Of a DNA stretch of 64,000 bases, positions 2,169 through 51,166 are shown in pieces (positions within the stretch are counted from its first letter, which is position 1; each line of letters starts with the position of its first letter). This DNA comes from Parcubacteria group bacterium. GTDB taxonomy: Bacteria > Patescibacteriota > Minisyncoccia > Phycocordibacterales > 21-14-all-47-15. Below the pieces are notes generated by a model. It did not search any database. It saw only the letters and a list, made by a program, of their open reading frames with translations, and was not told the DNA's origin. The stretch is taken from positions 2,845-66,844 of the forward strand of contig JACOYO010000005.1 of assembly GCA_016181845.1 (NCBI GenBank), written 5' to 3'. A program made the position numbers and the translations under genes.

Positions 2169-3659
2169 TTAGCGGCTATCATGTCCGGTATTAACAAAGG
2201 CAACACACTGGCCTTGGTTGCGGAAGCCGAAGTTCATCCAACCTAGATTCTTGCATTGGTCTGTGCCGGTTGGGTTTGGATCAGGATCGCCGTCGGGCGT
2301 AGGGTCACAAACATTGCCGATACCATCATTGTCATTGTCCTCTTGGCCCGGATTCGCTATACCTTGGCAATTATCTGCGAGATTATCTACGCCGTCATTA
2401 TCAGTGTCACCGTTGGGTGTAAAGTCACAAAGGTTGCCTTGACCATCACCGTCTGTATCGGCCTGGTCGGAGTTGACGTCCGCTGGACAGTTGTCTGCAC
2501 TGTCAATTATTCCATCGCCATCGGTGTCAGCAAGATATAAATACACAAACTCGGCGCTTTCAGATCCGACTAAGAAATTAATACCTGAAATGAAGACAGA
2601 ACCGCCACCTGCTAGATTGAGGAATGTCTGGAGTAGAGCGCCGTTGATGGCTTCATAGAGATAGACACTTCCGTCGTACGCATTTCCTATTACCAGCTTA
2701 TCCCCCGATATGGATACAGACCAGCCAAAATAGTCCAGATATACCGGCGTAGGGTTATTAAATGTCTGAAGTAAGGCACCCGTCGCGGCATCATAGAGAT
2801 AGGCAGAGCCGGCATTCTCAGCTCCGGTGTCGTCTCCACGTACGCCAATTAAAACATTGTCACCAGATACTGATACAGACCAGCCGAAAGAGTCACCAGA
2901 TTCTGGCGTAGGATGAATGAAGGTCTGGAGTAGAGTGCCGGTTGTAGCGTTATATAGATATGCAGAACCGGCGTTGTTGCCCCCGGTGTCGTTATAAGGC
3001 GCTCCAATCAATATATTGTCGCCAGATATAGCTACAGAGATACCAAAGTTTTTATAGGGTGTCGATGTAGGGTTATTGAAAGTGTAAAGTAATGATCCAG
3101 TCACTGCGTCAAAAAGGTAGGCGGAGCCAGCGTTGATGGCTCCAGTATCGTCCGCATATGCGCTAATCAACACTTTGTCGCCAGATATAGCTACAGAGTA
3201 GCCGAAGCCGTCATCGAATGCAGGTGCAGGGTTATTGAAGGTTTGGAGTAATGCGCCGGTCGTGGCGTTGTAAAGATAAGCAGAGCCGGCATTCTCAGCT
3301 CCGGTGTCGTCACTCCATGCCCCAATCAACACATTGTCACCTGATATAGCTACAGAGTAACCGAAAGAATCATCTATCGCTGGTGTGGGGTTGTTGAATG
3401 TCTGGATCAATGCGCCGGTCGTGGAGTCAAAGAGGTAGGCAGAGCCAGCATCGGTGGCGCCAGTATCGTCGTAAGGAGCACCGACAATAAACTTATTACC
3501 ATCAATGGCCACAGACCTGCCAAAGCGGTCACCTGCCGCTAGTGTAGGATTGTTTATTGTGACCGGCGCTCCATATGTCATCGCCGATGCTCCAATAGGC
3601 GCGATAACAAGAGCAAGCAATGAAAGCAGAGTGAGTGACTTGCGGATTGATGTATTCAT
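2169..3659 (-). CDS. Secreted FG-GAP-like beta-propeller repeat protein with C-terminal thrombospondin type-3-like (Asp-rich calcium-binding) repeats
   Basis: A signal peptide ([26 protein letters not shown]) starts at the ATG at 3657-3659. About 7 repeats of [32 protein letters not shown] follow, then C-terminal [33 protein letters not shown] motifs. Confidence 0.6.
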
Positions 3660-3678
3660 AATTATTAATGTCTGAATA

Positions 3679-5892
3679 TTATATGTCGGTGGATCTAATG
3701 GCGTTGATGGTCTGGTTACTGGATGTTTGAGTCCAAGAAGAAATAAACTGCTTAATAGGAGTTCCGCCCCCATCTCTTACAATAACAACTAAGTTTCTTG
3801 AACCGGATTGCACCGAAGTAAATCTGTCTGTTCCATTCTGCCCACCAGGTCCACTAGTATCTGTACTACTATATAGAGCATCTACATAAGCAATCCAGAC
3901 ATTGTTGCCTGCATTTGCATTCACCGAAAGAAAATCTTCATTACCATCTGTAGTGTCAATAACAAATGTATCAGTTGCCCATGAGGTATAATGGAGTCTT
4001 CTCTCAAAGCCATTATTATCTGTTACTCTGATGTATCCAATTGAAGGAGTGTCGGAAGGAATAGTTGTTGAAACCGCTACTGAGGTAATATTATCTGTTG
4101 TTAAAGCACTGGCGGCTTTAATAGCAAGTTGTGTTTTGGTTATCGCAGGATCTCCGTTTGTATCTGTTGTACTTCCGTCCCAAGGGGCGACCAACACTCT
4201 GTCTTCTCCATTAGCCAATCCTGCAACAATGTTAGTGACATTGTTAGGAGGAGAAATAACCGTATTTGTAAGGTCTGTCACTTTGTCCGAAGAAGATAAA
4301 TCCGCAGTTTGTAGGGCCAATCCATACGAACCGATCAAAGCAGAACCGGTTGAAGCTCCAACAAATGGCTTAGAAATACTACGTTCAGTTACCGTCACAT
4401 TTACTAATGCTGTTGCGCCTGAATTAGCTCCTGTAATTGTGTCGTTATCTACCGGCGCATTTCCTGTAAGAAGCTGTATCCACATCTTTGTGGAGCTACC
4501 TGTTCTGTCATTGATTGCAAGCATCTGTCCTGTACCACCAGACCACGAGACTGCTTCAACGGCATCGAAGTCTGTTGCGGATTGAGTATCAACGTTAATT
4601 TCGTGGGTAATACCCCTAAACAACTCTCCATTTAGCCCATAGACTTGCTCGGTAGAGCCGTCTGCTGTTTGGTATTTACCATATTCATAAAACTGGTTGA
4701 TAGTCTTGGCTCCTCTATCCCAAACCGCATAGTAGTTTTCATTTGTAGTGTTGTTATCAACATCAATGCTCTTATATCCAATATTAAGGTCGTATACCGC
4801 CTCACCGCCAGCAGTTGCTACTTGCAAGTTTCTGTTAAGGGTTAAAGCGTTTGTTGCTATTGAAACAATCTTATACTCACTGTTCTCTCCAGCCCACATG
4901 ATAAAATCTCCATCTGCAAATAATGCGCCATTAGATACATTTAGAATAGCTTGGCCTGTACTATTTACGCCAACGACTGTTGCAGTAGAGTCCGTTCTAT
5001 CAATAAAAACATCTTGCCACCCACTCACCGTGGTTTCACTTGTTGCGTTGTTTAAGTCTGATGAATCAGATAAGGCGAGGACGTTGTTACCCCTTGCAGT
5101 TGCATTAATTGAGAACTCGCCGTAGGTATACCCAAATCTCCTATTGGTTCCGAGTAGTTTTCTAAGGTCAACATCTGTTCCGCTAGTACGAACTTTTTGC
5201 ATCCATCTGTGAGATATACCCGCTGAAACAGACCTATTAACTCCAAGACCTACTTTGTAAACATCGGAAACTGCAAAAGTATTAGCAGTTCCTCCAAACA
5301 AACCAGCGGAACAAGTAATTGTGCCTGTTGTATTAGATGTAATTATTCCATGACTTCCGTCTGTCACGTTATAGAGTGTGAACCCAATGAGGTCATCTGT
5401 AGTAAGACTTCTGTTTGATAAAGCCGTTGATAACGCTGAGTCTGTGACTACAGTAGCAGATGCGGCAGAGGTGACACTTCCCCCCAAGCTATAGTTCCAC
5501 CAGTCATCGCTTACAACAGAACCATTTTGGTGAAGCTGGATAAGAACTCCTTTGTTGCCGAAGTTTACAATACCATCCCAAATATCAGAACCCGAAGTTC
5601 CTTGAATAACAGAACCATCATAGAGATGTTCTGACGATGTTTGGTCAATCGTATACCCGTTAATAAGGGTGATGATGTTGTCGGTTGACCTGCGAGAAGG
5701 GTCAATGTTGGTTACGTCCAATTGGTCGGAACTTGACGGTACTGCCACTGCATCATCTGCCAATCCTTGCAACCATCTGTGAAATTCAATTACTGTCGCA
5801 TACGAAGGATTCACTCCGGTATGGACGTCGCCAGTATATGCGATTACTTTTGTCGCTCTCGTTATTGTCCAGTCTGTTGCTACTATTGCCAT
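3679..5892 (-). CDS. Large (737 aa) T/S/N/G-rich hypothetical protein, possibly an adhesin or phage-receptor-binding-like structural protein
   Basis: Long ORF with tail-fibre/adhesin-like composition and no recognisable enzymatic motif. Its last 29 codons are duplicated at 2074-2150. Confidence 0.5.
3694..3770. repeat. 77-bp exact direct repeat, copy 2; the 3' end of the 3679..5892 CDS
   Basis: Identical to 2074-2150. Confidence 0.85.
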
Positions 5893-7308: not shown

Positions 7309-8484
7309 ATGAAGAATTACATATCCTATTTTTCATTTTTCTGTTTTGTATTTTTCGGTCTTTTTTCAATTTCTGTCGCGTTTGCCAATAGTTATCAAAA
7401 AATCGCTCCCGGCGACACAGTCACCTTGGGCGAATTCGTTTTTGATGACGATTTTGTCGCGACTACGACAAATTGCACTGTTGGAATAACCAATCCTCTT
7501 AATGCTGAGATAGTTGCATCAACCACATTGATGAACGCTAATACTGATGGCTGGCATTACTATAACTATACGACGGCGGCGGACGCCCCTTCCGGTATCT
7601 GGCCATCAATTATGATTTGCGGAACGGTAGCAAGGGGAGATTTGGTTATAGTAGACAAAAGTTTTATCGTTGATTGGTCAGTCGTTTCAACCAGCACAAT
7701 TAAAGAGGTGGTTGATGAAAGTTTGACCATAGCGACATCTTCCCTGGCGACAGTTATTAATACTCATACCGATACTAAGGCATCCGATATTGTGAGCGCT
7801 GTCAATCTCGTCACCGAGTCAGCTTCATCAAGTTTGTTTGCCACGCTTCCTTCCGCGATCTGGTCATTTAGCAGTCGGACACTCACTTCGTTTGGTACTC
7901 TAGTTGCCGACACGGCTTCGGCGGTGTGGACATCGGTGACATCGGTGACCCGCACCCTGACCGGCGCCGGTCTTGATTCTGGTTCTTTGGCTACCCTCTC
8001 TGATGTACAAACAGCAACGAGTTCTCTCGCTTCAGCAATCACGGCTGGAACGGTGGCGGTGAATACTAATACGAACGCAGAACTTCTTGCCGCCTCAACA
8101 TCCCTTGCCAATTTCATTAATAACAACAGCAACGCGACGATTCTTGCGGCTTCTACGTCACTGGCTTCATATCTAAGCGCTCACACGGATGCGGCGTCAT
8201 CATCAATCGCCTCATTTGTGAACGCTAATACCAACAGCACGGTATTGGCGGCATCAACATCGCTTGCGGCATTCATTAATGCAAATACGAATACACAAAC
8301 CGCCGCGGTAACGTCAGCAGTGAATGCAAACACCGATGCGCGGATCGCAACAGCATCAAGTTCGCTTGCGGCCACGCTTCCTTCCGCGATCTGGTCATTT
8401 AGCAGTCGGACACTCACTTCGTTTGGTACTCTAGTTGCCGACACGGCTTCGGCGGTGTGGACATCGGTGTGTGGACATCGGTGA
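7309..8484 (+). CDS. N-terminal part (signal peptide plus AASTSLAxFINANTN repeats) of a surface protein gene interrupted by a 14-bp tandem duplication; a frameshifted pseudogene or a phase-variable gene
   Basis: Signal peptide MKNYISYFSFFCFVFFGLFSISVAFA. The ORF ends AVWTSVCGHR* exactly where tgtggacatcggtg is duplicated (8456-8469 and 8470-8483). Removing one copy fuses it in frame to 8457..9968. Confidence 0.55.
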   Translation: MKNYISYFSFFCFVFFGLFSISVAFANSYQKIAPGDTVTLGEFVFDDDFVATTTNCTVGITNPLNAEIVASTTLMNANTDGWHYYNYTTAADAPSGIWPSIMICGTVARGDLVIVDKSFIVDWSVVSTSTIKEVVDESLTIATSSLATVINTHTDTKASDIVSAVNLVTESASSSLFATLPSAIWSFSSRTLTSFGTLVADTASAVWTSVTSVTRTLTGAGLDSGSLATLSDVQTATSSLASAITAGTVAVNTNTNAELLAASTSLANFINNNSNATILAASTSLASYLSAHTDAASSSIASFVNANTNSTVLAASTSLAAFINANTNTQTAAVTSAVNANTDARIATASSSLAATLPSAIWSFSSRTLTSFGTLVADTASAVWTSVCGHR

Positions 8485-9968
8485 CCCGCACCCTGACCGG
8501 CGCCGGTCTTGATTCTGGTTCTTTGGCTACACAATCTTATATTGACACTGCCACTTCAACTCTTTCTGCCAAAATCCAAAGCGGCTCTACGGTAACACTA
8601 TCTGATTTTGGGGCGACCACACCTAACACCGCGTACAAAGCAAAATTGCAGGTCCTAAACCAAGCGACCGTTCCAACGGATGCTGATTCTCTGCCAACGG
8701 TGGTTATTACTGATTCCGCCGGAACGGTCCAAGTCAATGGTAGCGTGATGACAAAGGACTCAAACGGCACCTACAGCTTTAGTTATAGTCTTGGCGGCAA
8801 CCCTGTCGGCGGTGTTTGGGAGACAGTAGTTTCCGTCGTCATTAATGGGCAAACGGTTAGAGTAAATGACTATTGGGAAGTTGCGTCAGCTCCGGCACAA
8901 GTGATTGTAAATTCTATTACCGATCATACTATTCCGAGCATCACCGCGAATGTGACCATAACTAATGAAGGAAGTTCCGCTTTTGAGTACCACTATGAAT
9001 GGTGCGTAGTAAAAGAACAAAATAATCCTTGCGGAGATGGTGATGATATTGATTACGCTTCAGCCGCCAAATTTATTCAGCCGGGTGAGGACTTTATCAC
9101 TGATTTGTCTCTTACTCTTAATCAAGAAGGAATTTTCTACTTCAAAGTGGCGGTTACGTGGGGGACGAAAAAATCATTTGCTTCCAGTCAGTTTGACGCG
9201 AGAGGATTTACCGTCTCTGGCGATACATTTGTCCGATTGGAAACGAATGAAGCAACATCTTCACCGTTTGTAACCGATGAAGGAAGTACCATAACGCAAG
9301 GTATTCCTGACGGGGCAACAAATGAAGCATCAAATTTCCACATTTCCAGATTGTCAAAAACGGATGTACTTGCGTCATTTGCCGCCCCGTCAGGAAAAAC
9401 GGCTCTTGGAAGTTACATCTTCGGGTTAAGAGCCAGCACGGTGGCAAGTGGCACGACGATTACCTTATTCAACAAACCGATTACTGTCACGTTTGAATAT
9501 GACGAGAGTTTGCTCGGCGGTTTAGATGAAAGCGCTTTACAAATTTATCATAATCTTGAAAACGGTAGTGGCTGGATTGCTTTGGATAATCAAAGTATTA
9601 ATACCACCAGCAACATCATAACTGGACAAACAATGAGATTTAGTTTGTTTGGTGTTTTTGGATCCGAGGTGGCTCAATCACCATCACCATCTCCATCACC
9701 TGCGCCTTCTAGCGGTGGCGGTGGTGGGGGCGGTGGAGGTGGAAGCGGTGCGGCCGCACCTTCCCAGCCGGCGGCTGTAATTACTTCAAAAGCCGAAAAC
9801 AGCGCGGACTTCAACGGGGACAATAAAGTGAATTCCGTTGACTTCTCAATCTTGCTATTCTTCTGGAAGACATCGCCGCCATTTGCAAATCCGGGAGTTG
9901 ACATAAACAAGGATGGAAAAGTAGATTCCGTTGACTTCTCAATCTTGCTCTATCACTGGAACAAATAA
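8457..9968 (+). CDS. C-terminal part of the same surface protein, ending in a Pro/Ser/Gly linker and a canonical type-I dockerin pair
   Basis: The C-terminus reads ..SPSPSPSPAPSSGGGGGGGGGGSG..DFNGDNKVNSVDFSILLFFW...DINKDGKVDSVDFSILLYHWNK. That is two 12-residue Ca-binding loops (D-x-N-x-D-x-K-V-N/D-S-x-D), each followed by an (F/L)SILL helix, which is the dockerin signature. Confidence 0.6.
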   Translation: MDIGVWTSVTRTLTGAGLDSGSLATQSYIDTATSTLSAKIQSGSTVTLSDFGATTPNTAYKAKLQVLNQATVPTDADSLPTVVITDSAGTVQVNGSVMTKDSNGTYSFSYSLGGNPVGGVWETVVSVVINGQTVRVNDYWEVASAPAQVIVNSITDHTIPSITANVTITNEGSSAFEYHYEWCVVKEQNNPCGDGDDIDYASAAKFIQPGEDFITDLSLTLNQEGIFYFKVAVTWGTKKSFASSQFDARGFTVSGDTFVRLETNEATSSPFVTDEGSTITQGIPDGATNEASNFHISRLSKTDVLASFAAPSGKTALGSYIFGLRASTVASGTTITLFNKPITVTFEYDESLLGGLDESALQIYHNLENGSGWIALDNQSINTTSNIITGQTMRFSLFGVFGSEVAQSPSPSPSPAPSSGGGGGGGGGGSGAAAPSQPAAVITSKAENSADFNGDNKVNSVDFSILLFFWKTSPPFANPGVDINKDGKVDSVDFSILLYHWNK

Positions 9969-9970
9969 AT

Positions 9971-10900
9971 ATGCATACATTCTCTAACAAAAAAATACAC
10001 ATCTTCATTCTGTTGTTTAGCGCAATGTTTTTGCCGTTTTCGGTTTCCGCCTCAACCGCGTATATAGACACCGGTCATACAGATTTTTTCGTTGGGGATA
10101 CTATATTGTTTAGTGTTCGTGTTGACTCTGAAAATAAAGATATAAATGCGGTTGATGGGGAGGTTTTGTTGGATCATGCGGCAAGGTCGGTTTCTTTAAT
10201 TGATATCAATACGGCGAGTTCCGAATTTTCTCTTTGGCCATTAAAACCTTTGCCATCGGAGAGAAATATGAGCATTTCTTTTGTCGGCGGGTCTCCCGGT
10301 GGTTTTAACTCCAAAGACGCGGTTATTTTCAACATTGTCTTGAAATTGGAAAAAGAAGGCCCAATAACTCTGACACCTAGTGATTTTTCTGTGTATCTAC
10401 ATGACGGCAAAGGCACCAAAGATGATGTACATGCTAAACAATTAGCCATAAATGTCTTGCCTAAAAAACCAGATTCGCAGCCAGTTGATGATTGGAATAA
10501 TGTAATTTCAAATGATAAGACCCCGCCCGAGTTTATTGAAGCAATCATAGATAGAGACCCGTATATTTTTGATAACCAATATTTTGTGAGTTTCTTTGCT
10601 GTTGATAAGGATGCTGGGGTCGCTTATTATGAAATTAAAGAGAACGATCTTGATTTCGTTCACGCCGAGAGTCCTCACCTTCTCCAAGACCAATCACTTA
10701 AAAGCGTTGTCCAAATAAAAGCGGTTGATAAAGCAGGAAATGAAATCTTTGTGACTCCAAAATTGGCCCCGGTACCGATAACAGGAATTCCTTACAAAAC
10801 ATATCTGGTCTGGGTTCTTGTTATCCTGGTAATTCTAGCGTTTATTTTCTGGCTTTTGCGGTTCTGGACGACTACATTAAAAAAGAATGTTCAAAAATAA
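9971..10900 (+). CDS. Membrane-anchored protein with an N-terminal cohesin-like beta-sandwich domain; signal peptide and C-terminal TM helix
   Basis: Signal peptide MHTFSNKKIHIFILLFSAMFLPFSVSA. Residues ~28-165 follow a cohesin-like pattern of alternating hydrophobics (ILFSVRV..INAVDGEVLLD..SISFVGG..G.FN...AVIFNIVLKL..G). C-terminal TM YLVWVLVILVILAFIFWLL. It sits directly downstream of the dockerin gene. Confidence 0.5.
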   Translation: MHTFSNKKIHIFILLFSAMFLPFSVSASTAYIDTGHTDFFVGDTILFSVRVDSENKDINAVDGEVLLDHAARSVSLIDINTASSEFSLWPLKPLPSERNMSISFVGGSPGGFNSKDAVIFNIVLKLEKEGPITLTPSDFSVYLHDGKGTKDDVHAKQLAINVLPKKPDSQPVDDWNNVISNDKTPPEFIEAIIDRDPYIFDNQYFVSFFAVDKDAGVAYYEIKENDLDFVHAESPHLLQDQSLKSVVQIKAVDKAGNEIFVTPKLAPVPITGIPYKTYLVWVLVILVILAFIFWLLRFWTTTLKKNVQK

Positions 10901-12617
10901 AAAAATACAATTTTTGAAGTTTGCGCTGTTTCTCGGTCTTTTCGTCTTTTCGTTTTTTGGCGCAAGGACAGTGAACGCCGCGACTATTTATTTTAGTCCG
11001 TCTTCCGGTAATTTTTCTGTTGGGAATATTTTGACCATGAGTGTTTTGGTTAATACCCAAAGCAAGGCAATAAACAACTCCAATGCAATTATAAATTTTC
11101 CAGCCGGCCTTTTGGAGGTCGTTTCGATTAGCAAATCCGGCTCCATCTTTTCGTTGTGGGTTGAAGAGCCGTCTTTTTCTAATAGCGCGGGGACTATCTC
11201 TTTTGATGGCGGACTGCCAACACCAGGTTTTAACGGCACAGCGGGTAAAATTGTAAATATCGTTTTTAGGATTCGCAACGCCGGCACTGCTTCATTGGTA
11301 TTTTCTTCCGCGGCCGTCCGAGCAAACGACGGCTACGGCACGGATATTTTGCAGACCAAAGCCAATGCTCAATTTAATTTAATTTCAGAAGAAAGACCAA
11401 TAGCGCCTCCGCCGGTTACCCTCGGGACTCCGCAGGCGCCAAGCATTTCTTCGCCAACTCACTCCGATTCTAATAAATGGTATTCAAATAATAGCCCCAA
11501 ATTTATGTGGGATGTTCCTTCTGGTATTACCGGTGTAAGATTGCTCGTTGGTCGTTTGCCTACAGCCACTCCAACCATACTTTACACAGAGCCAATTTCA
11601 GAAAGACAATTAGAAGATTTTGCTGATGGTGTATGGTATTTCCACGCTCAATTTAAGAATGAGGCGGGCTGGGGCGGCATTGCACACTTCCGTTTCCAGA
11701 TTGATACTGAAAAGCCTAGCCGCTTTGAGTTAACGGAAATTCCGCGAAAAGACATTACCGAACCAAAAACTAAATTTATTTTTGACGCAAAAGACGAAAC
11801 TTCGGGCATTGACCATTACAAAGTTCAAATAGATGCAGGAAGTTCGCAGGTCTGGCAAGATGACGGAAGCCACAAATATGAGACACCTGTTTTAGAACCG
11901 GGCAAACACACATTAATCGCAAAAGCAGTGGATAAAGCAGGCAACTCATTAGCCAATTCAGTAGAATTTACTATTGAAGCCCTGAAACCGCCGACTATTA
12001 CCGAATATCCAAAAGAATTACAAAGCGGTGAGATACTCAAAGTTGAAGGAAATACCTATTTGAATTCTAAAGTTGTCTTGTGGCTTCAAAGAGAAAAAGA
12101 AGACGCCCAAAGTTATAGTATAGAAAGCGACAAAAACGGAAACTTTACTTTTATCGCTGATGAAAAGTCAAAAGATGGTATTTACAAATTGTGGGCAGAA
12201 GCAATTGATGATAGAGGCGCAAGAAGTGAACCGTCAGACAAATTAACTATTATTGTCCAGCGATTGGCAATCTTGGAAATAGCAACTCGAGCAACAATAT
12301 TCCTGATCATTATAATCCCACTTATTGCTCTACTTATCATTTTACTCATGTTGGTCTGGTACCTCTGGCATAAATTTATAACCATGAGGAACCGGCTTCA
12401 AAAAGAAGTCCGTGAGGCCGAGCAAGCATTGCATAAAGCATTTGATCTACTAAAGGAAGATATTCGAGAGCATATCAAAATGCTTGAGAAAGCCCAAACA
12501 AAACGGCGCCTTACCGAAGAAGAGGAAAAAATTATAAAGCAACTCAAAAAAGATTTAGATGACGCTGAAAAGTTTGTGCGAAAAGAAATTGAGGACATTG
12601 AAAAAGAAGTAAAATAG
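10887..12617 (+). CDS. Membrane-anchored protein with an N-terminal cohesin-like domain, Ig-like middle region, C-terminal TM helix and a charged coiled-coil tail
   Basis: The signal peptide is followed by a cohesin-like segment: ATIYFSPSSGNFSVGNILTMSVLVNT..AINNSNAIINFPAGLLEVVSISKSGSIFSLW...GTISFDGGLP..GFNGTAGKIVNIVFRIRNAG.ASLVF. It shares the AVDKAGN motif with the upstream paralog. TM IFLIIIIPLIALLIILLMLVWYLW, then a KE-rich coiled coil. Confidence 0.5.
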   Translation: MFKNKKIQFLKFALFLGLFVFSFFGARTVNAATIYFSPSSGNFSVGNILTMSVLVNTQSKAINNSNAIINFPAGLLEVVSISKSGSIFSLWVEEPSFSNSAGTISFDGGLPTPGFNGTAGKIVNIVFRIRNAGTASLVFSSAAVRANDGYGTDILQTKANAQFNLISEERPIAPPPVTLGTPQAPSISSPTHSDSNKWYSNNSPKFMWDVPSGITGVRLLVGRLPTATPTILYTEPISERQLEDFADGVWYFHAQFKNEAGWGGIAHFRFQIDTEKPSRFELTEIPRKDITEPKTKFIFDAKDETSGIDHYKVQIDAGSSQVWQDDGSHKYETPVLEPGKHTLIAKAVDKAGNSLANSVEFTIEALKPPTITEYPKELQSGEILKVEGNTYLNSKVVLWLQREKEDAQSYSIESDKNGNFTFIADEKSKDGIYKLWAEAIDDRGARSEPSDKLTIIVQRLAILEIATRATIFLIIIIPLIALLIILLMLVWYLWHKFITMRNRLQKEVREAEQALHKAFDLLKEDIREHIKMLEKAQTKRRLTEEEEKIIKQLKKDLDDAEKFVRKEIEDIEKEVK

Positions 12618-12733
12618 TTAGAAAAAACATTGAAATATGGATATTAAAGAACAAGCAAGATGATGATCAGCCGCCATGAAAAATCTCCGCCAGTCCAGCG
12701 TTATTGAGTCGTCTGTGTCTTTTTCTACAAAAT

Positions 12734-12788
12734 TGGAGCCGCCTCCCGGGCTTGAACCGGGGACCTACGGTTTACAAAACCGTTGCTC
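12734..12788 (-). pseudogene. Partial direct duplicate (3' 55 nt: D-stem 3' strand through CCA) of the adjacent tRNA-Thr; a possible att-site scar
   Basis: 55 nt are identical to the 3' part of the tRNA at 12933-13008. There is no 5' acceptor strand. An inverted D-arm-like fragment (ccaactgagctagctcagttgttagagcaac) lies between the two copies. Confidence 0.55.
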
Positions 12789-12932: not shown

Positions 12933-13008
12933 TTGGAGCCGCCTCCCGGGCTTGAACCGGGGACCTACGGTTTACAAAACCGTTGCTCTACCAACTGAGC
13001 TAAGGCGG
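12933..13008 (-). tRNA. tRNA-Thr (anticodon UGU), 76 nt with encoded CCA
   Basis: The reverse complement is GCCGCCTTAGCTCAGTTGGTAGAGCAACGGTTTTGTAAACCGTAGGTCCCCGGTTCAAGCCCGGGAGGCGGCTCCA. This folds as a canonical cloverleaf with a 7/7 acceptor stem, anticodon loop UUUGUAA and T-loop TTCAAGC. Confidence 0.9.
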
Positions 13009-13033
13009 CAATTGATTTTATATTTTTACAAAG

Positions 13034-20169: not shown

Positions 20170-20318
20170 ATGTCAGATCTCTTGATTGGTAAAATATCGG
20201 CATTGGCCGTTTAGACGTCCGACCTCTGGATTGGTAAAATATCGACATTGGCCACAAATAAAAAATTACCACATCAGAGGTCGGACGTCTCGCACATCAG
20301 AGGTAGGACATCTTAAGT
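20170..20318. repeat. REP3-family MITE-like element: a 16-bp inverted repeat AGACGTCCGACCTCTG/CAGAGGTCGGACGTCT flanking a ~45-nt spacer, with tandem sub-duplications
   Basis: A near-identical ~110-bp element recurs at 51964-52073. It sits in the divergent promoter region between fba and the pfkB-family kinase gene. Confidence 0.7.
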
Positions 20319-41039: not shown

Positions 41040-41096
41040 TTTACAAAGGTTCCTCCTTCGTGAGTTATCCACAACGAAGGAGGAACCTTTGTAAAA
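41040..41096. repeat. REP2-family composite palindrome: an inverted pair of the 16-nt core flanking a DnaA-box-containing spacer
   Basis: tttacaaaggttcctccttcgtgagTTATCCACAacgaaggaggaacctttgtaaaa. Confidence 0.75.
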
Positions 41097-41119: not shown

Positions 41120-44100
41120 TCACCAAAGATTCGCGGGACTGGTAGTGGCAACATTATTATTTCCAAAAGTAATATTGGAAACTGAAATGGAATAATTGTT
41201 TGTCGTCGCCGTGTCCGCAGAAACTGCGAGCGTGTTGTCTGAAAAAATAACATCCGAAAGAATAATTGGCGAATTGAGATACGATAGCGCCGTTTTCATA
41301 AACTTAAAGACCGCGCCGGAAATATTTGAAGTACTGCCCGATTGCAATACCGTGCTTTGAATAATGCCCGTGGCGCCAGTGCTCGCGCCGTCGTTTGACG
41401 CATCGTTTCCATTCGAGTCGTCGTAAACTGAAGTAAAAGTAACAGGATGTTCCGCGGTGCTTTGGATAGACAAATGACCATTAACCAAAAGCCGCTCGTC
41501 TTTGAATTTTACGATCACATCCGGGTCAATCGCAAGAGTTGAACTTGCAAGAATAGTTACCGTGCCTGATTGTTTTATCAAATACGGCAGCGTATTTTGT
41601 TTTAGCGTCGTTGTCGCGTTTGTTTTGGTGATAGCGCTGGCGAGCGCGATGCCATTCCATGCGTTTCCAGACCCGCTATTGCCTGAAAAATAGCCGTCAC
41701 CGATAACGCCGCTCGCGTAAATTGCTTCAGACGTGCTCGACGCAATAGTATTTGATGAGACTCGCGCTTCAGACGCAACCATATAAATACCGATAACATT
41801 ATCGGAAAATTGATTGTTTTCTATCGTCGGCGCGCCGCCGGTGCTCATCACGCCTCCCATCCAAAAACCGGAACCGTTATGCTGAAATACTGAATTGGAA
41901 ATAGTGGAACTTGCGGAGAAAAGCCGCAGACCGTGCATGCCTCCATACTCAAAAGTAGAGTGATTAATTGATGGCGAGGTATTTGCCAAATATAGATTGG
42001 CGGACGGCTGTCCTTGTCCGTCATAATATTTTCCACCATAACGAAACAGCGCGTAATCAAACACCGACGCATCGGAGCCCAACGCAAGCTCCACGCCATA
42101 CCAATCTCTTTTGGCGGGAGCGGTTACGCTGCCGTCTTGATTGGTATCGCCACCATAAGCATCATCAAGAAAACTGGTGAAAATTATTTTGTCGCTTTCC
42201 GTGCCTTGCGCATTCAATGTGCCCGACACGGCAAGACGGGCATTGTTATAAAATTTAATGATGGCGCCGGGTTCAAGCGTGAGTGTCTTACCCGACTGCA
42301 CAGTAATCGTGTCGTTATTTACCACATACGGACTTTTTGTTTTTTCAATAGTCATATTTTCTGTAATTGTCGGGTTGCCTTTGTTGAGCATGCGCGAAAA
42401 ACTATTGTATGCTTTTGGAGTTCCGTTGAGCACACTGCCGTTTGTATCATATCCGTTACGGATAATGACCTGGTTCCGTCCCCAATTTGTCCAGTCGGTG
42501 CCAGCTACATTCACATCAAAACGTTCCATTGAACGAAAATCTGGACTGCCGCTTCCTTTTGCGCACCAAACATAGCAATACGAAATCTCATCTATTGTCG
42601 TTGTCGCACTGCTTCCGCTTTTTCGCGCGAGAATAAGATTTTCGCCATCATTACTCAAGCCATCTCCAAAACTTGTCCATAAGTCGGCGGTGATATCTTT
42701 CACAGGTGACTGCGTTGCCTCGTCAGTTTCTCCTGTATTTTTTCTTTCAATCAGATAATAGCCGCCGGCTGGAATGGAGCCGCTCAAAGAAATATACGGA
42801 GAGCCGTCTGCCGTGTAAATTATAAACTCTGAAAGATTCACGGTGCTTGCCGTTTTGTTGTACAGTTCTATCCATTCATCAGCTGTGGATGCGTTTGTCC
42901 CGCCCCACGCCACTTCATTTATCACCACAGGCGAGGTGCTTATTTCCGCAGTAATAGTTGTTGTTGCTGAAGCGTTGCCTGATGTATCAATCGCCGCAAT
43001 CGCAAAAGAATAAGTTGTGTTGTTTGTTGCCGAAGCTGATGTTGAAGTCGCGGTCGTCGTGCTCACGGCGCCGTTTTTATTGATGACAAAGTGGCTGAAA
43101 TCATTCGCTTCAGAAGATAACCACGAAATAGAGAGCGTTGTTGTCGCGACGAGACAGCCGCTTGAAGCAAGCGAGCTTGCGCATTCTGCAATTGCGGGCG
43201 CGGGTGATTGCGGCGCGATTGAATCTATAAAAAATGTCGTGCTTGTGGCGGCAGAAATATTGCCCGCGCCGTCGGTGGCAAAAAATTGCGCTGTCGTCGT
43301 GCCTTGATTAAAAGTAAGCGCAAGAGACCATTCACCTGATTGGCTGACAGTGGTTGTCGCCGATGATACATCAGAGTTTATGACACTTCCCGATTCGGCA
43401 GTCCCGCTAAAGATTATTGATGGGCTCGTAAAGGTTCGCAAAAAATCCGCCGGAGCGGTGATCGCGGGGGCGGATGGCGGGATGGTGTCTGTTGCTGTTT
43501 GTGCATTCGCCGAAGATGTGGTTTGTGTTGTTGCATCTCCTCCTCCGCCGAAGCCTGGTGTGACAATTATCGGAAGTGATACGCCGGGAACAGTTTTGTT
43601 TGCGGAAGCATTTTCAGTGTTAAGCACTGCATCCGGTGAACCGCCGACATATGCTTCATCAGAATTTTGGTTTTGATTGGTTTGTTCTTCGGTGCGCAAA
43701 TTTGTGTTTTTCAGAGAAAAATCGGCAAGTGCAAAAGCAAGCGCTTGTGTTTCTTTTTCTGCCATCGCTACTTTTTGCTCAAGCGCGAGAAGCTCTTTGA
43801 CAGGCGACACGACATCACTAACATCACTAGATGACAGAAGCACAGGTTGTTCTTTTGTGAGCGGTAAATCAAGCACTTCAGCCACCGCGCTTGATTGCTC
43901 TTTTGGTGATGTGTTAAAGACGCTCGCGAGAGTGTTGGCGACTGAAAATATTCCTTGCGCAAGAGTGCTTCCCGCTTGATGCGCTCCTTTTGCAACAGCA
44001 ACAACAGTGCTTATACTTTTGCTTGCAACAGGGTCAGCAACGGCAAATATCGCGCCTTCTATTTTGTGTACGCGGGTCAGCTTGGGCGCTACGATACAGG

Positions 44101-44845
44101 GCATATTTTCGTCTATTCTATCATTGCTTTTTAATGCATCTAACGAAGCCGCTATATCAGAAACAACCTGACCGCCACGATATTTCAGATATACTTTCGC
44201 GAAATCATGCCCAGTAATATCATCGTCGGATTTTAATTTAATGTGAGTATTCGGCGGCATAATGCTTTTGAATGGAACATGCCCGACAACGCCGGCAATC
44301 ACTTTATCCGTATCGGACGTGAGCCATTTTCCGCCGCCGGCAACACTGCTTGCCGGAGTCGCAACACTGTAAACACCCATTGATTCTTTTGAGACGCCAG
44401 CTTCTTGCTCCGCGACGGTATCATAAAAACTATTGGCATAAAAATTGCCCTGTGAATGGGCAACGAGAAGGAGTTTTTGAGTACGAACTTTTTCACTTGC
44501 TGATTTAAGCATTTCCACGAGGTCATAGTCTGTCACTGTCTCCTGGTCAAACAACCCCTGTTCTATGGATTTTATAACGTCGCCGATACCGCCGAGGTGC
44601 GGTGGGTTGAGGAGAAAGTCAATAATCAATTTTTCTCCTTTGTAGGTATTCTTAAAATAATATTTTAAAGCATCTCTGTTTGAAATAGCTGCGTTTTCAT
44701 CAGTAAAGACACCATTAATTGTATTGATTGTATAACCCTCAGAAGAACAAGCTTCGCCAGACGTTTGAGCGAAAACTGTAAATGGAGAGAAGCTAACGAA
44801 AAAAGCAACTGCAATTATTTTAAATTTTATTGAAAAATGGTTCAT
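41120..44845 (-). CDS. Giant secreted protein (1241 aa): N-terminal esterase/lipase-like region (AHSQG), central lamin-tail domain, C-terminal parallel beta-helix-like repeats
   Basis: Signal peptide; GxSxG-like LVAHSQGN; the LTD signature VVINEVAWGG..ADEWIELYN...LSGSIPAGGYYLI; T/S/N-rich repeats. Confidence 0.5.
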   Translation of the reverse strand: MNHFSIKFKIIAVAFFVSFSPFTVFAQTSGEACSSEGYTINTINGVFTDENAAISNRDALKYYFKNTYKGEKLIIDFLLNPPHLGGIGDVIKSIEQGLFDQETVTDYDLVEMLKSASEKVRTQKLLLVAHSQGNFYANSFYDTVAEQEAGVSKESMGVYSVATPASSVAGGGKWLTSDTDKVIAGVVGHVPFKSIMPPNTHIKLKSDDDITGHDFAKVYLKYRGGQVVSDIAASLDALKSNDRIDENMPCIVAPKLTRVHKIEGAIFAVADPVASKSISTVVAVAKGAHQAGSTLAQGIFSVANTLASVFNTSPKEQSSAVAEVLDLPLTKEQPVLLSSSDVSDVVSPVKELLALEQKVAMAEKETQALAFALADFSLKNTNLRTEEQTNQNQNSDEAYVGGSPDAVLNTENASANKTVPGVSLPIIVTPGFGGGGDATTQTTSSANAQTATDTIPPSAPAITAPADFLRTFTSPSIIFSGTAESGSVINSDVSSATTTVSQSGEWSLALTFNQGTTTAQFFATDGAGNISAATSTTFFIDSIAPQSPAPAIAECASSLASSGCLVATTTLSISWLSSEANDFSHFVINKNGAVSTTTATSTSASATNNTTYSFAIAAIDTSGNASATTTITAEISTSPVVINEVAWGGTNASTADEWIELYNKTASTVNLSEFIIYTADGSPYISLSGSIPAGGYYLIERKNTGETDEATQSPVKDITADLWTSFGDGLSNDGENLILARKSGSSATTTIDEISYCYVWCAKGSGSPDFRSMERFDVNVAGTDWTNWGRNQVIIRNGYDTNGSVLNGTPKAYNSFSRMLNKGNPTITENMTIEKTKSPYVVNNDTITVQSGKTLTLEPGAIIKFYNNARLAVSGTLNAQGTESDKIIFTSFLDDAYGGDTNQDGSVTAPAKRDWYGVELALGSDASVFDYALFRYGGKYYDGQGQPSANLYLANTSPSINHSTFEYGGMHGLRLFSASSTISNSVFQHNGSGFWMGGVMSTGGAPTIENNQFSDNVIGIYMVASEARVSSNTIASSTSEAIYASGVIGDGYFSGNSGSGNAWNGIALASAITKTNATTTLKQNTLPYLIKQSGTVTILASSTLAIDPDVIVKFKDERLLVNGHLSIQSTAEHPVTFTSVYDDSNGNDASNDGASTGATGIIQSTVLQSGSTSNISGAVFKFMKTALSYLNSPIILSDVIFSDNTLAVSADTATTNNYSISVSNITFGNNNVATTSPANLW

Positions 44846-45660: not shown

Positions 45661-45740
45661 TTACAAAAGTTTACAAAGGTTCCTCCTTCGTTGTGGATAA
45701 CTTGTTATATTTACAAAGGTTCCTCCTTTGTAAATATAAC
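45661..45740. repeat. REP2-family composite element (two direct copies of the core flanking a DnaA box); it overlaps the last 8 codons and stop of the second RAYT-like gene
   Basis: ttacaaaagtttacaaaggttcctccttcgttgTGGATAActtgttatatttacaaaggttcctcctttgtaaatat. Confidence 0.75.
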
Positions 45741-47530: not shown

Positions 47531-50500
47531 TTAGATTGAATAGGTATGTGTTACAGAATCCATGTTTGATGTTGGCAACCCCGGTACCAAGTATCCGTTT
47601 GTCCAATCGAAGTCCGTAATCAATTCTGATGACGTCGTTGAGATTGGTGACCAGATAAAGTCGTCATTGATATCGTTGTCAACACCAGTTGCGCCAAGTT
47701 CTGTACCCGCAACATCCATCAAAGTTGTCGGCACTGCCGCATCTCCTTCTAGCTGAACAGTGATTTGCTCTGAACCGGTAGTCGTCCGCAAGTTGCCAAC
47801 GGTTGCTTTCAATTCAAAGTATCGTGTTGCGCCAGATGGGACTTTGTATGTCGTCGTGGCTGAAGCCTTGTCTGGATAGATCTCAACGATAGTTGGGCGC
47901 TTTGCATCTGATGAATCGTCGGCATTTGCACCGAGACCATTGATGTATTTATTTGCGTTAACCAAACCGTCTGAAGAGAATGTCGTATCCGGACTTGAGA
48001 ATCCAGAATCAGTGAAGGCGTAGAGACCGTAGGCTGAAGTGGTCGCTGATACGGATGATGAGCCCATAGTAAATGTCCATTTACCAAGCGCAATGTCTCC
48101 ACTATTAGCGGTTACACTGAAGCGGTACAATCTATAACCTGAACTGTTCTGAAGAGTCTGGCTTGGAGGATTAATCTTCGCAAACGTTGGGTATGCTTTG
48201 AAGATTCGTACTCCTGAAGGAGTTACGTCTCCAGACGTACCCGCAATGTTTGTGCCTCCTGCGACACCGACACCGTAGTTACCGTTTGCAAGACCGTTTG
48301 CTCCACCATCGTAAGCAACAATGAGCAAATCTCCTGATGCCGTCAAAGGACCAGTGACTGCTGATATACCGGAAATCGTACCTTTAATAGTCATTGTCTT
48401 AGACCCGCCCTGTGGAACACGGAATGCTCCTGATGCAATGTCTGATGATGTCGCGTTATCGCCATTGTTTGAGAACGTTGCTGTTCCAACCTGTGTGTTG
48501 CCATTCCACATTGTTACCTGGCTACCAACCAAGTCGATAGCTGTATTTCCTGCAGGGGTTGCGAGCTTGAACGCCACTCTCCTGATATCAATATCTTCAG
48601 ACGTTGCTGTAAATTTGATTTTCAAGAGTGTTGCTTCGGTTCCTGGAGATACGATTGTATATCCCGGTGTTGAATCATCCGCAACTGTGTATGAACCGCC
48701 TGTAGTCATTGTCATTGTCTGTCCGGCGCTGTTGTTTACTGTAATTGCTGAAGCTGAAGTTAAAGCTTGTCCTGACTGTACGCCTGTTGCTGACTGTGAA
48801 GCATCTGCGTTTGCAGAAATACCCCACTGGTACTGGTCAGTCGTTGTTGTTGCTGAAGTGTTGCAGTTCAAAGACAAGGTCTTTACCGTTCCTTTTGGAA
48901 TAACAAATCCATTGTCAAATGTGAAGCTCGTTGAAGATGCTGTCGCTTGCGTCTGTGCCGCTGTTGGGTTTACCAAGTTTGAGCCAGTCTGCAATGCGGT
49001 TGCGCCATCAGAAAGCCCGCAGTTTGTAAGGTTTGATGCTGTTCCAGCTCGCGTATTCAATGCCAATTTTACTGAATTGAAACGAATATCATCGCCTGAT
49101 TGTGACGCGTCAAACTGATACTTTGCGAAGTTGAATGAACCACCAGCAACTGCAGTCTGCGCCAATGGCGTTGAAAGTACGCTGATGGTGACCACCGGCG
49201 CTTTCACCGTCATTGTGTTCATCGTGATTGCAGATGAAGGTGTCGGGGTGATTGAATTACCAGTTGATTGACCTGTTACCGTGCCCCAACCGCTTGGTGT
49301 CGTTGATGCTTGTACAGTGTCATTGCTCGTGTAATCAGTGCTCAATTTACCTTTCAAGGTGTAGAGTCCCTTTCCAACCGGGAAAGTAACCGTATCAGTG
49401 AAGCTAAATGTGCCTGACTGAGTTACTGATGAGGAAGTATTTGCTCCATCAACTGGACCGGCAACAATATTGCCATTTGGACCAACTATGGTGACGTTTG
49501 TAATGTGGGCTACCGTATCTCCTACTGAGTTTGCAGTAAATGTCATGCTCGAAACAGAGATTGGTTCGCCTTTAACATCAACATTGAAACCTCCCAAAAC
49601 TTGGTTTGCTGTGTTGATTGAAATGTTTTGCGCGCCAACGCTTGTTGCCGCTTCTACTGTCAAGCTGCCGTTTGAAACCGTTGCCTGATATGCGTCATAC
49701 CATGGGTTTGTGCTTTCGTGGAACGCACCGTCATCTGATCCTGAAGTATCGGTACCGTTAGGAGGCGTAATTCCATATCCATACGTTTCACCCGTTACGT
49801 ATAGGTCTGTCCTCTTGTAGAGATCAAAGTCTATCGTACGAGCAGAACCGCCCAAGATATCACCTTTGATGTAGATTTCTTTTGAGGCTCCTTTGTCAAC
49901 AACGAGGCCTTCGCCAAATGTTGTTGTGTAGTATTTACCATCTGAAGAGACAACTACATCGTATGATGTTCCGTCAACGTATGTTTTTACATTTCCAATG
50001 TCAGCAGTCGCCGCTGAACCAGACTGATTCCATCTAATTGAATGAACGCGAACTTTTTCTGCTGAACCTGCCGTTACTTTGACTGATGAGAAAGTGTAAC
50101 CTGCTGTTCCAATTTCTTTTGAATTGCTTGCGCCAGGGTCAAGCGGACCTGCTGCCATCGTTACCGTGCCGATTGAAAGCGAGTTGTTTATTGTGTGTCC
50201 CGCGCCGGTGATAGGAAGAGAGCCTGAAACTGTTGCCGAGGTGTTAACCGCTACAACAGAAAGACTTGCAACCTGTCCTGCGTATGAACCCAAACTTGAA
50301 CCCATGTTTCCTGCAATCGTCATCGTGCGAGAGGTTCCCGCCTTTACAACGAAGGCATCTCCTACCGTTGCCTTGTGGTCAGAGTTCAAAGTCTTTTCAA
50401 TACCGAGCTGTGCGCCGTTTTCATCCAAAAGGACGATTCCGGCAAATACTGCGTCATTTGCAAGACCTGTGCGCTCAATCACTACGCTGTTTACTGTCAC

Positions 50501-51166
50501 ATCACCATCAAATCCTGCGGTGAGAGTAACTTTAGTAAACGGAACGCGTGCCGCACTAGCTGGTGCGAGCGATGCCGCTGGCTGGTCTGCCGACACAACC
50601 GACAATCCTGTCCCAGGAACACTTACAACCGGAGTTGAAGGTGTTGACGGGGTTGAAGGAGTTGAAGGTGTCGTTGCAACGCCGCCCATCGTGTTTAATT
50701 TTGCCCGTGTTGAGGCGCCGACAAAGCCGGTACCATTTGAAAGACCAACTGGGGTCAAAATATCTGAAGCGTATTTCTCTTGGAATTTGATAACTGCCGC
50801 TTTGGTCGCTGGACCAAAGAATGAAGTCTCATTTCCCGGAGAACCTACTCCGCTGACCGCGACTTTCGTGTCAGCGCTCATGTTCAACACTTTCTGAAGA
50901 TTCATCACATCGGTTCCTGTAGAACCTACTTTAAGGTTTACCGCGAACGTGTATGAACCAACCGAAGCGCTGCCTCCTGTCATTGTTGAAAGTTGTGCTT
51001 GGAGTGCCGAGATCGTTGCAAGCAAGCTGTTGATTTGAGCGGTAAGCTCTTCAACCGTTGCCGCCTGTGCGGGAACAAATACTGCTCCCATCATCATGAG
51101 CCCCGTTGCAATGCTTGCGAATCCAGCAATCACTTTTGAGAATGAAGATTTTCTAATTTTACTCAT
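47531..51166 (-). CDS. S-layer-like giant cell-surface protein (1211 aa) with a signal peptide, coiled coil, peptidoglycan-binding domain (PGBD-like) and a TPS-linker
   Basis: Signal peptide ..ATGLMMMGAVFVPAQA. PG-binding-like VGSTGTDVMNLQKVLN...FFGPATKAAVIKFQEKYA. A (TPS)4 linker, then >900 aa of T/S/G/A-rich beta-rich sequence. A ~900-bp AT-rich upstream leader fits a highly expressed surface-layer gene. Confidence 0.55.
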   Translation of the reverse strand: MSKIRKSSFSKVIAGFASIATGLMMMGAVFVPAQAATVEELTAQINSLLATISALQAQLSTMTGGSASVGSYTFAVNLKVGSTGTDVMNLQKVLNMSADTKVAVSGVGSPGNETSFFGPATKAAVIKFQEKYASDILTPVGLSNGTGFVGASTRAKLNTMGGVATTPSTPSTPSTPSTPVVSVPGTGLSVVSADQPAASLAPASAARVPFTKVTLTAGFDGDVTVNSVVIERTGLANDAVFAGIVLLDENGAQLGIEKTLNSDHKATVGDAFVVKAGTSRTMTIAGNMGSSLGSYAGQVASLSVVAVNTSATVSGSLPITGAGHTINNSLSIGTVTMAAGPLDPGASNSKEIGTAGYTFSSVKVTAGSAEKVRVHSIRWNQSGSAATADIGNVKTYVDGTSYDVVVSSDGKYYTTTFGEGLVVDKGASKEIYIKGDILGGSARTIDFDLYKRTDLYVTGETYGYGITPPNGTDTSGSDDGAFHESTNPWYDAYQATVSNGSLTVEAATSVGAQNISINTANQVLGGFNVDVKGEPISVSSMTFTANSVGDTVAHITNVTIVGPNGNIVAGPVDGANTSSSVTQSGTFSFTDTVTFPVGKGLYTLKGKLSTDYTSNDTVQASTTPSGWGTVTGQSTGNSITPTPSSAITMNTMTVKAPVVTISVLSTPLAQTAVAGGSFNFAKYQFDASQSGDDIRFNSVKLALNTRAGTASNLTNCGLSDGATALQTGSNLVNPTAAQTQATASSTSFTFDNGFVIPKGTVKTLSLNCNTSATTTTDQYQWGISANADASQSATGVQSGQALTSASAITVNNSAGQTMTMTTGGSYTVADDSTPGYTIVSPGTEATLLKIKFTATSEDIDIRRVAFKLATPAGNTAIDLVGSQVTMWNGNTQVGTATFSNNGDNATSSDIASGAFRVPQGGSKTMTIKGTISGISAVTGPLTASGDLLIVAYDGGANGLANGNYGVGVAGGTNIAGTSGDVTPSGVRIFKAYPTFAKINPPSQTLQNSSGYRLYRFSVTANSGDIALGKWTFTMGSSSVSATTSAYGLYAFTDSGFSSPDTTFSSDGLVNANKYINGLGANADDSSDAKRPTIVEIYPDKASATTTYKVPSGATRYFELKATVGNLRTTTGSEQITVQLEGDAAVPTTLMDVAGTELGATGVDNDINDDFIWSPISTTSSELITDFDWTNGYLVPGLPTSNMDSVTHTYSI

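Follow-up and report, generated by a model that had tools for sequence, protein, structure and literature searches.

A 14-base tandem duplication splits the gene of a dockerin-terminated surface protein in an uncultured groundwater bacterium

Why is a gene for a secreted, dockerin-terminated protein read as two ORFs in the genome of a Parcubacteria group bacterium? The locus lies in a window of 64,000 nt (the whole stretch of DNA analysed here, from contig JACOYO010000005.1; all features below are on the forward strand), where a 14-bp tandem duplication interrupts the coding sequence. A sequence-only reading had offered three explanations: a fresh pseudogene, an assembly error or an on/off phase-variable surface antigen. 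The likely answers are among these three, but the argument by which phase variation had been favoured fails: in this uncultured groundwater bacterium, the split looks more like an assembly error at a join, or a single recent mutation, than an evolved on/off switch.

One gene in two reading frames

Positions 7309–9968 are one gene, for a secreted, stalked surface protein, that is split by the 14-base tandem duplication. ORF1 (7309–8484, 391 aa) encodes a Sec-type signal peptide, an N-terminal beta-sandwich, a Ser/Thr/Ala/Asn-rich helical stalk and both repeat modules described below, and ends with ...AVWTSVCGHR. ORF2 (8457–9968, 503 aa) starts at a GTG inside the first 14-mer, lacks a signal peptide and encodes Ig/MG-like domains, an extra domain, a Gly linker and a dockerin with two calcium-binding-type repeats (9807–9966; internal repeat 9807–9873/9900–9966), which matched Dockerin_1 PF00404 with E 9e-9 and 35.8 bits against a Pfam cut-off of 22.9. 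The intact product would run from the signal peptide through an N-terminal beta-sandwich head and a long helical stalk to the Ig/MG-like domains and the C-terminal dockerin, and the stalk would be broken by at least one linker module, W-x4-RTLTGAGLDSGSLAT. This picture of a stalked surface protein was drawn also from the structure of the orthologue P0002.

The 14-mer TGTGGACATCGGTG occupies 8456–8469 and again 8470–8483, with GGTGTGTGGACATCGG as the two-copy junction sequence, and Tandem Repeats Finder (TRF) reported the array at 8455–8483 with period 14, 2.1 copies and 100% match. Out of frame, the second copy reads CGG TGA, which supplies the stop of ORF1 at 8482–8484. Deletion of 8470–8483 yielded a single ORF of 881 aa, and deletion of TGTGG alone (5 bases, 8470–8474) a single ORF of 884 aa, both free of internal stops. 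Sequence and TRF thus bear out the proposal that a tandem 14-mer ends ORF 7309–8484 and that loss of one copy gives a single signal-peptide-to-dockerin protein. When the window was simulated 200 times with a first-order Markov model, no perfect tandem duplication of at least 14 bp appeared (0/200), and no other tract was found within 7309–9968. Further stops or indels were found in neither half, ORF2 consisting of 503 intact codons.

The sole other oddity in the gene is an in-frame 9-bp tandem duplication in module 1, ACATCGGTG twice at 7930–7947 (copies 7930–7938 and 7939–7947; TRF 7929–7949), which adds the residues TSV and gives W-x7-R in place of the W-x4-R of the family. The duplication had been noticed before, with a start at 7931; TRF and the sequence place it one base earlier.

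ORF2 corresponds to MBI2046241.1 (HYT28_02380, 503 aa), which begins MDIGVWTSV, indicating that it is translated through the duplication junction and that the duplication is present in the deposited NCBI record. The protein cluster of MBI2046241.1 has this one member only, and the exact ORF1 sequence was absent from the protein collection searched. From the accession gap at MBI2046240, we infer that NCBI annotated ORF1 separately.

A direct repeat holds both duplications

Both duplications occupy the same point of one direct repeat that would be 146 bp long when undisrupted. Its copies are module 1 (7840–7994), which codes for ATLPSAIWSFSSRTLTSFGTLVADTASAVWTSV(TSV)TRTLTGAGLDSGSLAT, and module 2 (8371–8530), which is the same except at the duplication point. 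The left arms (7840–7938 and 8371–8469) are 100% identical over 99 nt and the right arms (7938–7994 and 8474–8530) over 57 nt, and apart from the duplications the two copies show 0 substitutions in 146 nt. In each duplication the first unit ends at nucleotide 99 of the repeat, at 7938 and at 8469, so that the first 14-mer stops where the left arm stops. This shared repeat was missed by the sequence-only reading, which had taken the coincidence of two duplications as a sign of slippage; what they share instead is the same 99-nt offset of one exact repeat.

Module 2 of the syntenic orthologue L001 is diverged and 12 nt shorter, so module 2 in the window looks recently overwritten by module 1. 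On this comparison, the repeat looks like a recently homogenised gene module, probably produced by gene conversion. A paralogous donor for the module was sought within the window and none was found.

Homologues and surface display

The species representatives that were scanned do not include the source genome. The restored frame was colinear across the junction with 12/12 of the closest homologues, all of which read through and have AVW-xxxx-RTLTG, and L001 carries one intact gene of 719 aa. The fusion of the two ORFs proposed from sequence therefore holds. The earlier reading had also called the motif a recurrent slippage site and had named a comparison with related loci as a check; that comparison found no ungapped frameshift (0/109 related loci), the patch TGGACATCGGT was unduplicated in 14 related loci and the W-x4-R spacing was held in 374 of the 384 motif instances of the family, which contradicts recurrence. 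What does vary is the number of modules: homologues have between 1 and at least 4 of them, modules are often gained, lost or homogenised in the family, and long exact intragenic repeats occur.

Two membrane-anchored cohesin-like proteins, encoded downstream in the same operon, would hold the dockerin protein on the cell surface. The first downstream gene (MBI2046242.1, 9971–10900), the probable dockerin anchor, encodes a cohesin-like N-terminal domain, aligned to the A3 profile by hhalign with a probability of 98.5% and E 2e-15, and a C-terminal transmembrane helix. The second (10887–12617) encodes a cohesin-like N-terminal domain, a Big_13 Ig-like domain, a transmembrane helix and a coiled coil, and 12 of the 23 family members of its N-terminal domain matched Pfam Cohesin PF00963 (best E 3e-10). 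The cohesin-like domains of the window itself fell below the Pfam Cohesin threshold, which was reached only via homologues; cohesin assignment by PDB sequence search was not significant with a single sequence (E ~0.8) or with a profile. The same dockerin/cohesin-like gene order is found at L001.

As in cellulosome-type cohesin–dockerin systems, two cohesin-like genes with membrane anchors lie here downstream of a gene whose product ends in a type I dockerin (PF00404). The passenger, in contrast, has no enzymatic module and is stalked, Ig-like and adhesin-like, and its cohesin binding is a prediction. Streptococcal M-like and alpha-C-type proteins are repeat-module surface fibrils that vary by intragenic recombination and are anchored by LPXTG. 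They share with the present family a variable module number and exact intragenic repeats under ongoing homogenisation, whereas there is no sequence relationship and a dockerin stands in place of LPXTG.

Origin of the duplication

The 14-bp duplication may well be a contig-join or local assembly artefact, a reading that we rank first but regard as evenly poised, and the 9-bp duplication is probably also an assembly or scaffold-join error. Gene conversion of module 2 by module 1 would leave an exact intragenic repeat of ~146 nt; a contig extending from the unique left flank would end k nt (99) into it, and the contig joined to it would keep too much of the overlap, an excess of 14 nt in module 2 and of 9 nt in module 1. 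The true gene would then be intact, with W-x4-R in both modules, each reading ...GTGTGGACATCGGTGACCCGC....

Several features of the locus are those expected of such a join. The exact repeat (arms of 99 and 57 nt; 146 nt undisrupted) is at least as long as an assembler k, and the breakpoint lies 99 nt from the repeat boundary, as it would for a k of 99 or 100. The value 99 is a member of the MEGAHIT default k list and equals k−1 for the IDBA-UD default maximum k of 100; both duplications sitting at the offset of a common assembler k indicates a technical cause. Removing the duplications restores the W-x4-R of the family, and ORF2 shows no other lesion. Among genome scaffolds of the gene family, 6/39 are broken within the module region by a gap of 100 Ns, and five of these six gaps are flanked by exact-repeat arms of 55 nt (L024, L034, L037 and L038) or 127 nt (L041). 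As 55 and 127 are assembler k values, breakpoints at offset k are seen within the gene family itself, and 33 of the 109 contigs stop short within the gene.

From its HY* locus tags, the MAG presumably belongs to the MEGAHIT and IDBA-UD study of He et al. 2021. There, MEGAHIT assembly was followed by IDBA-UD scaffolding (PMC7906910), and SRR12113431, the likely source run, and HYT28 were not found in the supplements. Local assembly errors are prominent in IDBA-UD assemblies: Chen et al. 2020 (Genome Res, PMC7111523) counted 13 in one 1.13-Mb CPR (Candidate Phyla Radiation) genome, one of them in a repeat-containing gene, and described duplicated sequence at scaffold joins. The present case resembles those errors in the repeat-containing CPR gene, the k-like 99-nt offset and the duplicated sequence at a presumed join, whose deletion gives back the family consensus. 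It differs in that there are no Ns at the duplication site, which speaks against an artefact, and in that it is known from the assembled sequence, with the assembler presumed.

The offset of 99 may also be a coincidence, with a chance of roughly 5% (~8 k-like values among the ~146 offsets allowed). Moreover, every k-mer of a pure de Bruijn contig must be present in the reads, which leaves a scaffolding or merging step as the only place where the error could have arisen. The 9-bp duplication in module 1 could be genuine, because real tandem duplications of this length are frequent in these genomes: in 700 kb of related loci there were 36 short perfect ones of 9 bp (3.3 per 64 kb), along with 8 duplications of 12 bp and 3 of 14 bp. 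A general excess of tandem duplications was considered as a pipeline signature and rejected, the 9-bp ones being equally common in the 700 kb from other assemblies.

Sequences from the same sample were sought across the duplication, whose flanks are identical over 99 and 57 nt, so that unique sequence lies only before 8371 or after 8530. The strict DNA pattern CTTCGGCGGTGTGG-N{0,30}-ACCCGCACCCTGAC, which allows any spacer of 0–30 nt, had 0 matches in the metagenome collection and hence returned no contig of the same population across the duplication; exact-protein look-ups with ORF1 and ORF2 returned no contig either. Look-ups with neighbouring genes retrieved two short Logan contigs only, both of run SRR12113431: L110, which covers 9261–11079, and L111, which reaches to ~7474, neither extending to the duplication. 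L110 is a second haplotype of the same gene in the sample, with 16 differences in 9260–9345. A diversity-generating retroelement acting on this variable patch was rejected, the differences not being adenine-specific.

Weighed against an assembly artefact, a real and very recent mutation by replication slippage or misaligned repair, fixed or allelic, is possible, if on balance doubtful. It would make the gene a nascent pseudogene with no regulated switch and, as an equally tentative consequence, would uncouple the secreted ORF1 part from the dockerin-bearing ORF2, which would stay cytoplasmic. The duplication is part of the deposited record and far beyond chance, these genomes often acquire short perfect tandem duplications by natural mutation, and the 9-bp duplication has GAC/GAC microhomology. 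Module 2 has recombined recently, module turnover is frequent in the family, and the second haplotype shows that the gene varies within the sample. The ORF is interrupted where orthologues are intact, as in a frameshift pseudogene; the additional degenerative lesions of an older pseudogene are absent, both halves being otherwise undamaged, which fits a very young lesion. A real mutation would, however, mean that two rare indels arose independently at one position of a repeat whose copies otherwise show 0 substitutions over 146 nt, and both at offset 99. The 14-bp event has microhomology of 1 nt only, the out-of-frame tandem duplications of at least 10 bp in the 700 kb of related loci were all intergenic or non-disruptive, and no homologue is frameshifted. 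Folds of the ancestral, 9-bp-duplicated and 14-bp-duplicated DNA were ordinary (z −1.1 to −1.9), and a hairpin or quasi-palindrome hotspot was rejected as evidence.

It is improbable that the patch is a phase-variable switch, evolved or de facto, that is hypermutable in gaining and losing short units and by which the dockerin protein is withdrawn from the surface and displayed again; that gene conversion between stalk modules made a genuine duplication hotspot, at which gain and precise loss of 9–14 bp reversibly uncouple the stalked adhesin from its dockerin anchor, we consider quite improbable. Such readings draw on the regain of the frame by precise loss of one unit, on the two different duplications at one site and on the target, a surface protein of a presumed episymbiont encoded by a recombination-prone gene. 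Yet the site is not recurrent among relatives, and the co-located duplications have a simpler technical explanation. Simple-sequence-repeat contingency loci, as in Neisseria, Haemophilus and Campylobacter, have long tracts of 1–9-nt units or homopolymers. As there, a change in repeat number alters the frame of a surface-protein gene here. Against a tract threshold of a homopolymer of about at least 8, or several copies of a 2–9-nt unit, in an ORF or promoter, however, the locus has 2.1 copies of a 14-nt unit and no simple-sequence tract, and an ungapped frameshift was seen in none of the 109 loci. A nearer precedent is cap3A of Streptococcus pneumoniae, for which the passage of PMC11163986 on Waite et al. 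2001 describes reversible on/off switching by tandem duplications within the ORF, with reversion and a spectrum of duplications seen experimentally. In both genes a perfect tandem duplication within the ORF stops production of the protein, which exact removal of one copy would bring back; here the truncating duplication is perfect and its excision restores a protein colinear with homologues. The difference is that the present case is one static sequence with no recurrence in relatives, whereas reversion of cap3A, as that passage has it, was seen experimentally. Programmed ribosomal frameshifting between the ORFs, or two deliberately separate functional genes, is extremely improbable. The ORFs overlap by 28 nt and ORF2 is a CDS in the NCBI annotation, but the shift needed is −1/+2 and 8440–8484 contains no slippery X XXY YYZ heptamer or homopolymer; the split was made by a perfect duplication and is found in no homologue; and ORF2 has neither a signal peptide nor a Shine–Dalgarno-like sequence before GTG 8457. 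A prfB-type frameshift suspected at 15892 was looked for and not found.

Discussion

The finding is an ordinary one, of a kind already known. If the duplication is an artefact, the ORF1 protein and MBI2046241.1 are one dockerin protein of 878–881 aa and not two 'hypothetical proteins', and the locus is an example of exact intragenic repeats leading to corrupt gene calls in MAGs built from short reads. A real duplication would be a recent inactivating mutation in a surface gene prone to recombination, which is routine. Only if switching were true would the locus matter more widely, as a first hint that surface display in CPR bacteria can be phase-variable; on the hotspot reading this would be an on/off or anchored/released switch of a host-contact protein in an episymbiotic CPR bacterium. 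The gene family is not a new kind of system and is of some descriptive value, for its stalked Ig-like passenger, its variable W-x4-RTLT modules and its dockerin beside two membrane-anchored cohesin-like proteins.

A 14-bp duplication splits the dockerin gene in the deposited sequence

Within the dockerin gene (7309..9968, plus strand), the 14-mer TGTGGACATCGGTG is present as two adjoining copies at 8456-8469 and 8470-8483 (Tandem Repeats Finder: period 14, 2.1 copies, 100% match); perfect tandem duplications of at least 14 bp occurred in 0 of 200 simulated windows. The frame shift introduced by the second copy makes the first ORF (ORF1), 7309..8484 (391 aa), stop at CGG TGA (8482-8484), and a second ORF (ORF2), 8457..9968 (503 aa), carries on in the −1/+2 frame. 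Deletion of 8470-8483 yielded one 881-aa ORF, and deletion of only TGTGG (8470-8474) yielded an 884-aa ORF with a TSV insert as in module 1. The junction is uninterrupted (AVW-xxxx-RTLTG) in all 12 closest homologues, and the closest orthologue, P0002 (719 aa, 73% identity), is a single intact gene, found as an identical assembly in two ENA groundwater samples (loci L001 and L002). Together, these results confirm the duplication and the fusion of both ORFs into one gene, as proposed in the sequence-only reading. The public record also holds the duplication, with ORF2 deposited as NCBI MBI2046241.1 (HYT28_02380, Parcubacteria group bacterium, 136-kb contig) and starting inside the first 14-mer copy.

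The gene also carries an in-frame 9-bp duplication (7930-7938 and 7939-7947), and both duplications lie at the same position within a long direct repeat formed by two stalk modules, module 1 (7840..7994) and module 2 (8371..8530). The left arm of the repeat (7840-7938 = 8371-8469) spans 99 nt and the right arm (7938-7994 = 8474-8530) 57 nt, both 100% identical. In each case, the first copy of the duplication ends exactly 99 nt into the exact repeat.

This short motif had been read as a recurrent slippage site. The restored protein, with the duplication removed, was compared by tblastn with 109 related loci, of which 39 came from species-representative genomes, 68 from metagenome contigs and 2 from ENA contigs; this revealed no ungapped frame change, and none of the 14 loci with the same nucleotide patch, TGGACATCGGT, carried a duplication. 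Four residues separate W from R in 374 of the 384 instances of [VI]W-x(n)-R[TS]L[TS]; module 1 of the window (n = 7) is among three outliers in this set, and module 2 shows the only frameshift. The site is thus not a family-wide hotspot, and recurrent slippage at the motif is not borne out.

Gene product and genomic context

The window comes from the chromosome of a Candidate Phyla Radiation (CPR) bacterium; EF-Ts, ribosomal protein S2, a release factor and tRNA-Thr are encoded nearby. The restored protein starts with a Sec-type signal peptide, as read from its sequence, and ends with a type I dockerin (PF00404, E = 9e-9). Patescibacteria MAGs and groundwater metagenomes contain over 110 homologues, 500-1500 aa long. 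P0002, the intact orthologue, has an AlphaFold model (mean pLDDT 76.8) in which an N-terminal beta-sandwich is followed by a helical stalk of ~270 residues, broken at two low-confidence linkers that coincide exactly with the W-x4-RTLTGAGLDSGSLAT modules, then by two Ig/MG-like beta-sandwiches (Foldseek matches to RbmA, complement MG domains and adhesin extender repeats), a Gly linker and, last, the dockerin. ORF1 encodes the secreted head and stalk and ORF2 lacks a signal peptide; the split therefore parts the head and stalk from the presumed anchoring part.

Two tightly packed genes lie downstream (9971..10900 and 10887..12617), each encoding a cohesin-like N-terminal domain and a C-terminal membrane anchor. 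The N-terminal domain is common to both (hhalign probability 98.5%), and 12 of 23 homologues of the cohesin-like domain match Pfam Cohesin. With the dockerin gene, 9971-12617 may form a three-gene dockerin/cohesin surface-display operon; gene order is the same at L001, the orthologous locus.

Origin of the split

We judge the chance that the split arose as an assembly artefact to be about even. Where a repeat exceeds k, a contig entering from unique sequence stops k (or k − 1) nt inside it, and 99 is a member of the MEGAHIT default k list and equals k − 1 for the IDBA-UD default maximum k. If a scaffold join left the overlap of the next contig under-trimmed by 9 nt at module 1 and by 14 nt at module 2, this one type of join would explain why both modules are struck at the same offset with unequal lengths, and why the strict family spacing is broken twice in an otherwise undamaged gene. 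Other assemblies of the family show such k-dependent breaks directly. In six of the 39 scaffolds from species-representative MAGs (L024, L031, L034, L037, L038 and L041), a 100-N gap interrupts the module region, with unlike reading frames on its two sides; in five of the six, the bounding exact-repeat arms, exactly 55 nt in L024, L034, L037 and L038 and exactly 127 nt in L041, correspond to the assembler k. One third of all related contigs terminate within the dockerin gene. Its HY* locus tags suggest that the window's MAG may stem from the He et al. 2021 study. In that study, MEGAHIT assembly of groundwater CPR MAGs was followed by the IDBA-UD scaffolder (PMC7906910). Local assembly errors are prominent in IDBA-UD output, and duplicated sequence is also described at scaffold joins; one 1.13-Mb CPR genome had 13 such errors, one of them in a repeat-containing gene (Chen et al. 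2020, PMC7111523). Counted against an artefact are the absence of Ns at the duplication site, the inability of a pure de Bruijn contig to include unseen k-mers, so that a scaffolding or merging step is needed, and a possible coincidence of the 99-nt offset (a chance of roughly 5% when several k-like values count).

That the duplication is a real recent or polymorphic mutation, making the gene a nascent pseudogene, is a serious if somewhat doubtful explanation. Short perfect tandem duplications are naturally frequent in these genomes (3.3 nine-bp events per 64 kb, across 700 kb of loci that many different pipelines produced), the 9-bp duplication has GAC/GAC microhomology and the gene is recombinogenic. 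A second haplotype within the sample would also fit: Logan contig L110, an independent assembly of SRR12113431, probably the source run, carries 16 differences packed into 9260-9345, an 86-bp patch in the extra domain of the dockerin gene, and past 9345 is 100% identical to the window up to 11079 (1.7 kb), which indicates a putative second haplotype or recombined patch in the population. However, a real mutation would take two rare indels, arising independently at a single site, in copies otherwise free of substitutions, and out-of-frame tandem duplications of at least 10 bp in related loci are all intergenic or non-disruptive. Evolved or de facto phase variation is very unlikely: the site resembles a cap3A-type switch in silico, with a perfect tandem duplication inside an ORF and a frame that is regained when one copy is precisely removed, but unlike a simple-sequence contingency locus it has two 14-mer copies, no tract and no recurrence in relatives. 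A programmed frameshift or intended split is scarcely credible. We conclude that the split either does not exist in the organism or represents an ordinary lesion of recent date, of low interest unless both alleles at module 2 appear in reads.

Other repeats in the window

A 77-nt exact direct repeat (2074-2150 and 3694-3770) brackets an FG-GAP/thrombospondin-repeat gene (2169..3773, minus strand), with one copy overlapping the 3′ end of a 737-aa gene (3679..5892), and may have been left behind when a cassette was inserted or duplicated. For tRNA-Thr(TGT) (12934-13009, minus strand), the 3′ two-thirds recur as a 56-nt exact copy 200 bp away (12733-12788 / 12933-12988), which resembles the att-site remnant that an integrated element would leave. 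Tandem pairs of the 23-nt motif CACATCAGAGGTCGGACGTCTCG lie 32 kb apart at 20270-20315 and 52023-52072 (4 matches, 0 expected). Exact direct and inverted repeats of 30-50 nt (41063-41095, 45670-45702 and 47384-47413; 46431-46480 and 47348-47397) flank two minus-strand genes, each longer than 1200 aa (41120..44845 and 47531..51166).

Module homogenisation and stalk length

Module 2 of the orthologue is strongly diverged from its module 1 and 12 nt shorter, although the gene around the modules is ~87-90% identical to the window; this argues that module 1 overwrote module 2 in the window's lineage. Across the gene family, modules are commonly homogenised and commonly vary in number. The W-x4-RTLT stalk modules range from one (P0010, P0011 and P0033, among others) to at least four (P0015) among homologues, including loci L006, L025, L026 and L041, and other loci of the family contain exact intragenic repeats, the longest of them 296 nt. 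On the basis of module number and these repeats, intragenic recombination appears to be a driver of stalk-length evolution.
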